Origin: a virus
Lineage: Duplodnaviria > Heunggongvirae > Uroviricota > Caudoviricetes
Direction: 5' to 3' (one strand)
IMG/VR virus record: IMGVR_UViG_2706794676_000009
DNA: 4,501 nucleotides
A program made the translations under genes and the position numbers. This document shows positions 1 through 4,501 of the stretch, one piece after another (position 1 is the first letter of the stretch; each line of letters opens with the position of its first letter). The notes under the pieces are model-generated. The model made no database searches, had not been told where the DNA came from, and was given only the letters and a program-made list of their open reading frames with translations.

Positions 1-50
1 GGGAATATCTCCCCGGCAGCCTTCAGGGAAAAATATCATCAGATGGCTGC

Positions 51-404
51 TTAAAAAAAGAACAAATGGTAGTGTCCGCTATTGCCAGTACACCTCAATT
101 GCTCTGCGGCTTCGCTCAGAGCTGGCGTATGTTCCCGGCCTACTGATTCACACAGGTAATCAACGAAACCGGACACCAGTTTTCGTTCGCGAGGCGTGAT
201 CGCCCCACCGACCGGAGTCCAGTAATCGAAACCCAGTTGCAGGAGTTTGAAAAAACGCTTGTGGAATGCGTAGTTACACACACGCTTAAAGTCTGCGTGT
301 ATCCACTCACCTATTTTGATTTGATGCAGAAAATCGCAACTCTCCGGCGTCGCCGGGAGAAGTAATCCGGAAGAGGTTTGTTTGACCAGTTGTATATGTG
401 CCAT
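51..404 (-). CDS. small phage-type protein of unknown function (117 aa)
   Basis: Minus-strand ORF 51..446 from the track. The 446 end is only a TTG, whereas the internal ATG at 402-404 has GGAGAAAG about 7 nt upstream, so I place the start at 404. Stop TAA at 51-53. Translation MAHIQLVKQ...FHKRFFKLLQLGFDYWTPVGG... resembles small conserved nin-region proteins of lambdoid phages, but that family assignment is memory only. Confidence 0.5.
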   Translation of the reverse strand: MAHIQLVKQTSSGLLLPATPESCDFLHQIKIGEWIHADFKRVCNYAFHKRFFKLLQLGFDYWTPVGGAITPRERKLVSGFVDYLCESVGREHTPALSEAAEQLRCTGNSGHYHLFFF

Positions 405-1368: not shown

Positions 1369-2055
1369 TCACTCCTTCTCTTCTTTACCGTAGTGGAGTT
1401 GACCAATTTTGATAAGAGGGCGTCCCTGAGATTTGCGGTGTAGATTGGTATCGCGCAGAGAATACACACAGCCACAATATTCCTGCTGATAGAATTTTTC
1501 GCGCTTGCTGATTTCAATCATACGGGACGAGCCGCCCTGCTTGCGCCAGTTATAATCCCAGTACACCATGCCCGGATAATGCGCGACGGCTCGCCGCCCA
1601 CAGTCGTTAACCTGCTGCATATTTTTCCAGCGTGAAATGCCCAGTGAACTGCTGATCACACTGAAACCATTTTCAGCGGCGTACAGCGCTGTCCGCTCAA
1701 AACGCATGTCAAAACACATGGTGCAACGGATCCCTCGTTCGGGCTCCCATTCCATTCCTTTGGCTCGTTCAAACCAGTTGTCTGTGTCGTAATCAGCATC
1801 AATAAACGGCACGCCGTGTTGTTCAGCAAAGCGAATATTCTCATCCTTACGAATTAAATACTCTTTCTGAGGATGAATGTTCGGGTTGTAGAAAAAGATG
1901 GTGTAGTCGATTCCCGAGGCCTGAAGCGCCTCCATCACCTCACCGGAACATGGAGCACAGCAAGAGTGCAGTAGTAGTTTGTTTGCCCCGTTTGGGAGCT
2001 CCAATTTGGGCCGTTTGAAATCAGCAACTGTCATAAATATGTTTATTGGGGTCAT
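1369..2055 (-). CDS. DUF208/QueH-like protein (candidate cobalamin-independent epoxyqueuosine reductase)
   Basis: 228-aa ORF, ATG at 2053-2055, stop TGA at 1369-1371. Motifs [11 protein letters not shown] near the N-terminus, [18 protein letters not shown] in the middle and [12 protein letters not shown] near the C-terminus fit what I recall of the QueH family (clustered Cys ligands for an Fe-S centre). No Shine-Dalgarno before either the first ATG or the second at codon 8. Confidence 0.5.
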
Positions 2056-3053: not shown

Positions 3054-3723
3054 CTACTTAACAACCCTCGAATGGCTAACATTCGGACGCCAGCTCTCCC
3101 AGTTAAAATTCACCCAGCGNNNNNNNNNNNNNNNNNNNNNNNNNNNNNNNNNNNNNNNNNNNNNNNNNNNNNNNNNNNNNNNNNNNNNNNNNNNNNNNNN
3201 NNNNNNNNNNNNNNNNNNNNNNNNNNNNNNNNNNNNNNNNNNNNNNNNNNNNNNNNNNNNNNNNNNNNNNNNNNNNNNNNNNNNNNNNNNNNNNNNNNNN
3301 NNNNNNNNNNNNNNNNNNNNNNNNNNNNNNNNNNNNNNNNNNNNNNNNNNNNNNNNNNNNGATAGCTGCCGCTAAGTGATTCTTCCCGGTACCAGGTTTT
3401 CCGCTGAACGCAAAATTTGTACACCCGGTCATCAGTTCATCGGCGATGGATTTCGCCTGGCTTAACGCGTATCGCTGGCCGTCGTTCTGCACCTGGTAAT
3501 TCGCAAACGAGCATTTACGGTGCAACGGCTGGATGCCTGAGCGATTCAGAATTTTTTCCACCCGCAACTGGCGATTCAGGCGGTTGATCTCCTCGCTACG
3601 TTTCTGGCCTTCAGCAAGTTGCCACTCGCGCCACTCCGCTACCGTTCTGAATGGGGCGGTTACATGTGGCGGGGTCAGTCGGCGGATGCGTTCCAGAACG
3701 CCGCCTGTCGCAATATTTTTCAT
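3054..3723 (-). CDS. DnaC-like replicative helicase loader (AAA+ ATPase), interrupted by N run
   Basis: ATG at 3721-3723 with GGGGG 9 nt upstream, 6 nt after the initiator stop. N-terminal 121 aa end in the Walker A motif FSGKPGTGKNHLAAAI and follow E. coli DnaC closely (NRSGIQPLHRKCSFANYQV vs DnaC NRSGIRPLHQNCSFENYRV). After the gap, the frame ending TAG at 3054-3056 encodes WVNFNWESWRPNVSHSRVVK, which matches the DnaC C-terminus (WVIFNWDSYRSRV). The track's stop at 3103 is a frame artefact of the gap. The span is 670 nt, not a multiple of 3, so the gap length is not exact or there is an indel. Confidence 0.8.
3120..3360. other. unresolved or masked sequence (241 N)
   Basis: Uninterrupted run of n inside the DnaC-like gene, immediately after the Walker A motif. 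Confidence 0.97.
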
Positions 3724-4077
3724 GGTCCGTTACCCCCTGAAGCCTGGCGGGATCGCACTGTCCGGCAACGAGACGGTGTTAACCTGTCGGAGCAACGTCT
3801 CAGGCCGAACACCTTTCGGCGCGAACAGGCCCTGGTATTCATTGGCGATGCTGTGTCGAATCACCTGCTCAGGTGTAAAACCCTGCTGACGGAATTTTTC
3901 CAGTTCCCGTATCGCCCCGTTAGCGCCCTGCTCCGTTCGAATCGGTTTTCGCAATGCCTGTCTGAACCGGACCCACTCATGCCAGAGTGTTTCCGGCAAC
4001 CAATCGGGCAGCTCAATAGCCTCCGGCTCGAATTTTTTAGACGCTCGTTTTTGGCGAGGGGGAGATCAGTATTTAGA

Positions 4078-4098
4078 TCTTCCTCTTCCTCTTCCTCT
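4078..4098. repeat. tandem hexanucleotide repeat TCT(TCCTCT)x3
   Basis: Read directly from the plus strand. On the minus strand it encodes the acidic run EEEEED in the initiator linker. Confidence 0.85.
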
Positions 4099-4190
4099 GG
4101 TAACGCTTTTTGATCCGTTTGTGTAACGCTGGCAGCGTTACCTTTTCGTTTCAGTTCGCGTATTTTTGTTACTCGCTCGTTTGTAACCGC
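4099..4190. repeat. iteron-like cluster of GTAAC(G/C)C motifs, including a perfect palindrome GTAACGCT-ggc-AGCGTTAC (4123-4141)
   Basis: Core GTAAC or its complement GTTAC occurs five times in about 90 bp (4100, 4123, 4137, 4168, 4183), three times with flanking CGC. GGTAACGCT at 4099-4107 is repeated inverted at 4134-4142. The cluster sits in the linker-coding part of the initiator gene, as the lambda origin sits inside O. Confidence 0.4.
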
Positions 4191-4501
4191 CCGTTTTTTT
4201 TAGAGCTTTTTCCGTTATGACGTTCAAAGTTAGGTAGAGAAAGCCCTCCGTCATTTTCGACCAGCCATCCAACCTGAATTAACGCATCAGCAAAACCAGA
4301 CATAAAAGTGATGCGATCTATTGCACTTTTTGTAACGCCGCGAGCGTTACAATCTGCATTACCGTCTATCATTTGTTGATCCGCCCATGCCCAGAAGCGA
4401 ATAACCTGAGGTAGCCTGAGTTTAACGGACACTCCTTCCTGAAATAGAATGGCATCAGAAGGAGCTAATAATGAGCAGAAAAACCCAACGTTACTCTAAA
4501 G

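Follow-up and report, generated by a model that had tools for sequence, protein, structure and literature searches.

The 4,501-nt stretch of Caudoviricetes DNA analysed here (IMG/VR record IMGVR_UViG_2706794676_000009; hereafter the window) contains what appears to be a replication-initiator gene in pieces, directly upstream of a DnaC-like helicase-loader gene. This raises the question of whether the initiator gene is truly dead, or only appears so as the result of sequencing error. On the minus strand between 3730 and 4432, three successive frames each read as sensible protein, and the frame switches at two runs, T8 at 4194–4201 and G5 at 4058–4062 (as read on the plus strand), in agreement with the initial annotation of this DNA. 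Two readings had been offered there: a genuinely inactivated initiator in a cryptic prophage, or homopolymer under-calling in a draft assembly. The interval is almost certainly a recently inactivated replication-initiator pseudogene from a lambdoid (Rac-like) prophage of Shigella sonnei.

To define the ancestral gene, the region was compared by megablast with 5,426 complete E. coli genomes, of which 681 covered at least 80% of it. In the best-matching E. coli records, a 789-nt gene encoding a 262-aa protein is annotated between a cro/ydaT pair and the DnaC-like gene ydaV, and this intact initiator gene is found in many E. coli prophages. Alignment to the intact genes in two records (L001 and L002) identified a YdaU-like replication-initiator remnant at 3730–4406 (minus strand) that corresponds to nt 105–789 of the intact gene, with the stop codon at 3730–3732. 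At the protein level, the window fragments are 100% identical to residues 36–262 of the intact homologue, confirming that the three pieces are parts of one protein and not chance ORFs. As it stands, the remnant lacks the uninterrupted reading frame of a YdaU-like or PHROG 2509 family member, this having been broken by an IS600 insertion, a +2 change and a 10-bp deletion. When all three lesions were repaired (by removing two A, putting back TCCCCCTAAA and restoring the 5′ 104 nt), the protein was 100% identical to a 262-aa E. coli protein (P0031), and the repaired gene differed from the intact E. coli allele at a single nucleotide, a synonymous change in codon 88 (GGA vs GGT). With decay this recent, amounting to one synonymous substitution, the fragments still resemble good protein.

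The first frameshift lies in a run of eight A on the minus strand (4194–4201; T8 on the plus strand), which is an A6 run plus two bases. At this site, intact genes have A6, in the context TCT AAA AAA CGG. A8 was found in none of the 132 complete E. coli genomes matching the site, the best identity being 97.5%, which corresponds to A6. A partial 136-aa protein (P0002) from a short contig labelled S. sonnei has an uninterrupted N-terminus with the sequence KSSKKKRAV, equivalent to an in-frame A9. The length of the A homopolymer therefore seems to vary between copies or strains (A6, A8 and A9), and, judging from the P0002 sequence, some isolates may carry an intact-looking initiator allele, possibly in another prophage.

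The second frameshift lies at 4057–4063 (minus strand), the sole surviving copy of a 7-bp direct repeat, TCCCCCT. Here, intact genes read TCCCCCTAAATCCCCCT, while the window keeps one TCCCCCT; the deleted 10 bp, TCCCCCTAAA, comprise one repeat unit plus AAA, between the two direct repeats. At the deletion site, 549 complete E. coli genomes gave a match, always with the additional 10 bp present (89% identity); a match lacking them was found in no complete E. coli genome. Comparison with intact homologues thus overturns the earlier view of two deletions of like sign: the changes are opposite in sign, the A run being a +2 expansion and the G5 site a 10-bp deletion, and in neither case was a single base lost. 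Adding one base appears to mend each run because +2 and −10 are each −1 modulo 3. That simple repair does give a single ORF, as had been proposed (234 aa from the GTG at 4432), but the size of about 240 aa inferred from it does not hold, the true product being 262 aa.

The third and most disabling lesion, missing from the initial list, is an IS600 insertion. Similarity to intact initiator genes ends entirely at window position 4407, and 4407–4501 (plus strand) is the left end of IS600, an IS3-family element, with its terminal inverted repeat (TGAGGTAGCC...) and the orfA start codon at 4471. Positions 4408–4501 match, at 100% identity, sequence that more than 3,000 E. coli genomes annotate as IS600 transposase. 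In the gap-free assembly L003, the full copy is 1264 bp long (8763–10026), has the termini TGAGGT...ACCTCA, and carries genes that encode HTH_Tnp_1 and rve domains. It is flanked there by ...GGGAAGGT on one side and GGTTATTCGC on the other, at a site where the intact gene reads GGGAAGGTTATTCGC. The target-site duplication, GGT (ACC on the plus strand), lies at 4404–4406 on the minus strand, with its second copy beyond the IS, outside the window. Sequence identity, TG...CA termini, the 1264-bp length and the 3-bp target duplication all mark the element as IS600. In L003, the first 107 nt of the initiator gene sit across IS600 from the remainder, so that 1.26 kb separates the remnant from the promoter, the true start codon and codons 1–35.

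The insertion also changes the reading of the upstream boundary. The piece that had been described as the N-terminal domain of the initiator is without its first 35 codons, because 4407–4432 belongs to the IS600 terminal inverted repeat; the upper 26 nt of the interval that had been assigned to the gene, including its presumed GTG start, are not initiator sequence. The 87-aa ORF of public annotations (4169–4432, minus strand) joins the IS600 end to initiator codons 36 to ~104: its GTG start (4430–4432) and first 8–9 codons (MSVKLRLPQ), down to 4407, derive from IS600, and its premature stop at 4169–4171 is produced by the +2 frameshift. The IS600/initiator junction is spanned by 0 of the 5,426 complete E. 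coli genomes, and a 34-mer over this junction has no match among species-representative genome contigs.

These lesions are fixed across assemblies. The IS600 junction, the A8 run and the 10-bp deletion were the same in 8 of 8 independent assemblies fetched (6 of them on contigs of ~4.8 Mb), and the exact 87-aa ORF occurs in 481 blocks of the public collection and on 492 public contigs. The names attached to this ORF are those of Shigella sonnei, e.g. FORC11_0721, and the 89-aa C-terminal ORF appears as FORC11_0720. A sequencing or assembly artefact, in which homopolymer under-calling fakes frameshifts in an intact gene, might be suspected given the two N runs in the window, the position of one break in an 8-base homopolymer, and the scattered one-base differences and split genes seen elsewhere in some of the assemblies L005–L010. 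However, the first lesion, at +2, would be an over-call and not an under-call, and the second is a 10-bp deletion between direct repeats and not an error of run length. Nor were the lesions absent from, or variable across, the assemblies, as would be expected of an assembly homopolymer error, in which run length alone is affected. The N runs had been taken as a sign of poor assembly; yet outside these runs the window agrees at 100% identity with two gap-free assemblies, L003 and L004. Homopolymer under-calling is excluded because the lesions are shared by eight assemblies, with the resulting ORF on 492 contigs, and are found in none of the complete E. coli genomes; the probability that we are dealing with an artefact is negligible. 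The alternative that the initiator was genuinely inactivated in a cryptic prophage stands, with intact homologues reading through both sites and the surrounding prophage being an IS-riddled remnant with no structural genes.

We also considered the possibility of programmed recoding, in which A8 would act as a transcriptional-slippage or ribosomal-frameshift site from which a functional product is made, or in which the short N-terminal protein would be the real product. Runs of at least eight A can cause RNA-polymerase slippage in enterobacteria, and the length of this run seems to differ between copies (A6, A8, and A9 in P0002). However, no conserved recoding signal is evident, because the intact homologues have A6 and a single frame that reads through both sites; a conserved slippery run with a two-frame organisation was not seen among them. 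The same read-through argues against the short N-terminal protein being the real product. In addition, slippage at A8 would leave the 10-bp deletion unrepaired, and would not regain the 35 codons and the promoter lost to IS600. Recoding is thus a very improbable explanation.

It is also conceivable that fragments of the gene have been exapted, with the 89-aa DnaT-C-like ORF (3730–3999) or the 87-aa IS600-fused ORF being expressed and modulating YdaV or the host DnaB/DnaT. Each of these ORFs has a start codon and some annotations list them as genes, AGGAAGGA is read in the sequence immediately upstream of the GTG at 4432, and the adjoining ydaV is undamaged, its product matching the E. coli protein at every residue. 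By contrast, the TTG start of the 89-aa ORF, at 3999, is without support, and the single synonymous change from the intact allele has left no time for selection to act on the fragments. Since recency alone predicts the same intactness, we consider exaptation highly unlikely, and retain the reading that the locus is a young pseudogene.

To assess what the ancestral protein was, the intact 262-aa sequence was compared with protein families. It matches PHROG 2509, 'replication initiation protein', over residues 1–262 (E 1.2e-89), and has partial matches to O-like and 'primosomal protein' PHROGs, among them PHROG 678, 'replication initiation O-like', over residues 77–236. One PGAP record carries the name 'phage replication initiator YdaU family protein'. 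This name was not reproduced from the HMM library, because NCBIfam gave only a far-sub-threshold DnaT match (NF002770, 16–17 bits vs a cutoff of 201), so that the protein as a whole does not fall within that DnaT family. Pfam returned no match for the intact protein or for the fragments, DUF1376 (PF07120) included. The label 'replication initiator' is thus a probable assignment that rests on PHROG 2509, the one PGAP name and the position upstream of a DnaC-like gene.

The C-terminal 93 residues (170–262; window 3733–4011, minus strand) form a DnaT-C-terminal-like domain, identified by phmmer against the PDB as homologous to the E. coli DnaT C-terminal domain (2RU8, E 9.5e-5; 9ZBT, E 3.2e-4), and the tail VNTVS-PDS-IPPGFRG is almost identical between the initiator and DnaT. 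In the window, the sequence of this domain is undamaged, in a frame that differs from that of the upstream part, and lies mostly inside the 89-aa ORF. Over the C-terminal 124 aa, the protein is 81% identical to a K-12-type YdaU (that of L008, listed with DUF1376), while the N-terminal parts of the two are unrelated. The initiator has in this the usual lambdoid mosaic of a variable N-terminal specificity domain and a loader-matched C-terminal domain. Between the two domains, a (GAGGAA)n hexanucleotide repeat at 4078–4098 (minus strand; 3.5 copies by Tandem Repeats Finder) encodes an acidic EEEEEE linker. The repeat count is 3 in the window, in L003, L004 and L008, and in intact E. coli genes, 6 in L005, L006, L007 and L009, and 7 in L010 (the stretch lying around 10330–10380 in L005–L010). 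It is therefore a variable-number repeat among assemblies carrying the initiator pseudogene.

This organisation can be set beside several known systems. The Rac ydaU-ydaV module of E. coli K-12 has the same order of cro, ydaT, initiator and DnaC-like loader, and the ydaV genes are related; it differs in that the K-12 YdaU is a DUF1376 protein, to which the N-terminal 140 aa of the present protein are unrelated (no DUF1376 match), in its in-gene repeats (GTAACGC here vs GATGTTCAAACA there), and in that the window copy is a pseudogene. A two-domain initiator beside a helicase loader is common to the present module and to lambda O/P, and in both, as with the lambda ori in the O gene, iteron-like repeats lie midway along the initiator gene, where the linker is encoded. 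Unlike in lambda, the present C-terminal domain is DnaT-like and its partner DnaC/IstB-like, not lambda P, and any origin function here is predicted from sequence. The C-terminal homology and the DnaC/IstB-like gene directly after the initiator make ydaU-ydaV a parallel of dnaT-dnaC in E. coli, although the resemblance to DnaT is limited to the C-terminal ~90 aa, and the present gene is a prophage gene, dead in this genome. A literature search found no work joining ydaU, ydaV and replication, and none that cites the assembly accessions. DopC/DopE have been described with the same architecture, which combines an O-like N-terminus and a DnaT_C motif with an IstB-like partner (PMC5509034).

The repeats mentioned above form a cluster at 4099–4352, without strand assignment, made up of a site at 4099–4107, a palindrome at 4123–4141, GTTAC-N10-GTAAC at 4168–4187 and a palindrome at 4330–4352. 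The window holds 6 copies of GTAACGC where 0.46 would be expected; 5 of them fall within the initiator gene, for the most part in palindromes. These motifs are candidate origin iterons within the initiator gene. At the equivalent central position of a K-12-type ydaU allele (L008 7528–7634), GATGTTCAAACA is present in 5 copies with 33-nt spacing, which suggests, by analogy with lambda O and its ori, that the in-gene iterons change together with the N-terminal domain. The +2 and −10 indels fall just outside the GTAACGC motifs and would not necessarily be destructive to such an origin, and the cluster neighbours an intact DnaC-like loader. One could imagine that the dead gene keeps a working origin, which a cognate initiator supplied in trans by a related Rac-like phage, whether incoming or resident, would fire, leading to local over-replication of the IS600-bounded 4.3-kb segment or to its escape replication; we regard this as a long shot.

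The neighbouring genes retain the arrangement of the intact module, with the order cro, ydaT, initiator, ydaV in L001, L002 and L003, and the initiator directly upstream of the loader. In the window, ydaV, the DnaC/IstB-like helicase-loader gene, lies at 3054–3723 (minus strand), partly under an N run, and begins 7 nt past the initiator stop. The initial description of the loader as intact-looking is borne out by the gap-free assemblies, in which ydaV encodes 248 aa (10710–11456 in L003), identical to the E. coli protein. A frameshifted helicase loader was considered and rejected: the apparent break in the ydaV frame arises because the length of the N run is unfaithful, the run of 241 N at 3120–3360 standing for 318 nt in the gap-free assemblies, where the gene is intact. 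Similarly, the run of 250 N at 788–1037 stands for 244 nt; as the N-run lengths are unfaithful, reading frames cannot be transferred across them. Further along the window are an intact cargo gene for epoxyqueuosine reductase, QueH (1369–2055, minus strand), and after it a hok-family toxin gene (around 1050–1200), partly under an N run. Outside the window, the ydaT-like gene encodes 101 aa in L003 (8273–8578) vs 140 aa in E. coli (L001 3398–3820), and the alignment of L001 with L003 over this gene has a single 1-nt gap. This gap may explain the shortening, apparently a further minor lesion in this decaying operon.

At the other end of the window, positions 1–97 (plus strand) are the right end of a second IS600 in the same orientation, which cuts short a DUF1367 gene (ORF 51–446) and joins it to an integrase fragment. 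The flanks of this copy are without a target duplication (AAT vs GTT); together with the joining of the DUF1367 gene to the integrase fragment, this marks an IS-mediated deletion or rearrangement. An IS600 copy thus stands at either end of the whole 4.3-kb segment; the two share one orientation, measure 1264 bp each and, in L003, differ from one another at 2 positions. The prophage around the segment is, in S. sonnei assemblies, a scrambled remnant that lacks structural genes and has no more of an integrase than a fragment. Among its parts are lysis genes, the holin gene carrying an IS, IS110-family and IS3-family elements, DUF977, a zinc-ribbon ORF, QueH, hok and Rem, as well as the truncated DUF1367 gene, followed by IS600 and the integrase fragment beside modC. 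A different arrangement is found in L008 (GCA_001248565.1; 7176–10264), where the same IS600 is preceded by a K-12-type ydaU and a truncated ydaV (241 aa), the 5′ ydaU fragment is absent before IS600, and different DNA (DUF1627 and others) lies past ydaV. This points to recombination of two Rac-like prophages via IS600 or ydaV homology. The initiator is only one of many defects in this prophage, and recency by itself would leave ydaV and the cargo intact.

Taken together, these data are consistent with the following history. The ancestral 262-aa protein would have comprised a presumed origin-binding N-terminal domain, a linker both acidic and basic, and a DnaT-like domain at the C-terminus. 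The N-terminal domain would have bound the repeats within its own gene, and the DnaT-like domain would have recruited YdaV-DnaB, presumably to deliver this complex of DnaB and the DnaC-like YdaV to the origin much as lambda O and P do. IS600 transposed into codon 36, duplicating GGT and placing 1.26 kb between the rest of the gene and its promoter, start codon and first 35 codons. Strand slippage would account for the change from A6 to A8, and slippage between the two TCCCCCT repeats, 10 bp apart, for the removal of one repeat unit, the three mutations being independent of each other. Autonomous replication from this module would have been lost as a result.

Whatever the order of events, the initiator pseudogene is a product of routine Shigella genome decay that is already present in hundreds of public assemblies. 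It shares with other IS-driven Shigella pseudogenes the insertion of IS600 with the 3-bp duplication typical of IS3 elements, the presence of further IS copies and the small frameshifting indels; we see no difference from that mode of pseudogene formation, of which this is a routine example. Its importance beyond annotation is small. For annotation, the locus illustrates how an apparently repairable homopolymer frameshift can mask other lesions, here a +2 change, a 10-bp deletion and an IS insertion, and how the comparison of intact homologues and independent assemblies settled the question of artefact with no need of raw reads. It is, for S. sonnei, a further documented case in which IS600 and slippage drove the decay of a prophage replication module. 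The two-domain initiator, with an architecture already described (PMC5509034), may be of modest interest for the study of phage replication modules and of the origin of dnaT-dnaC.
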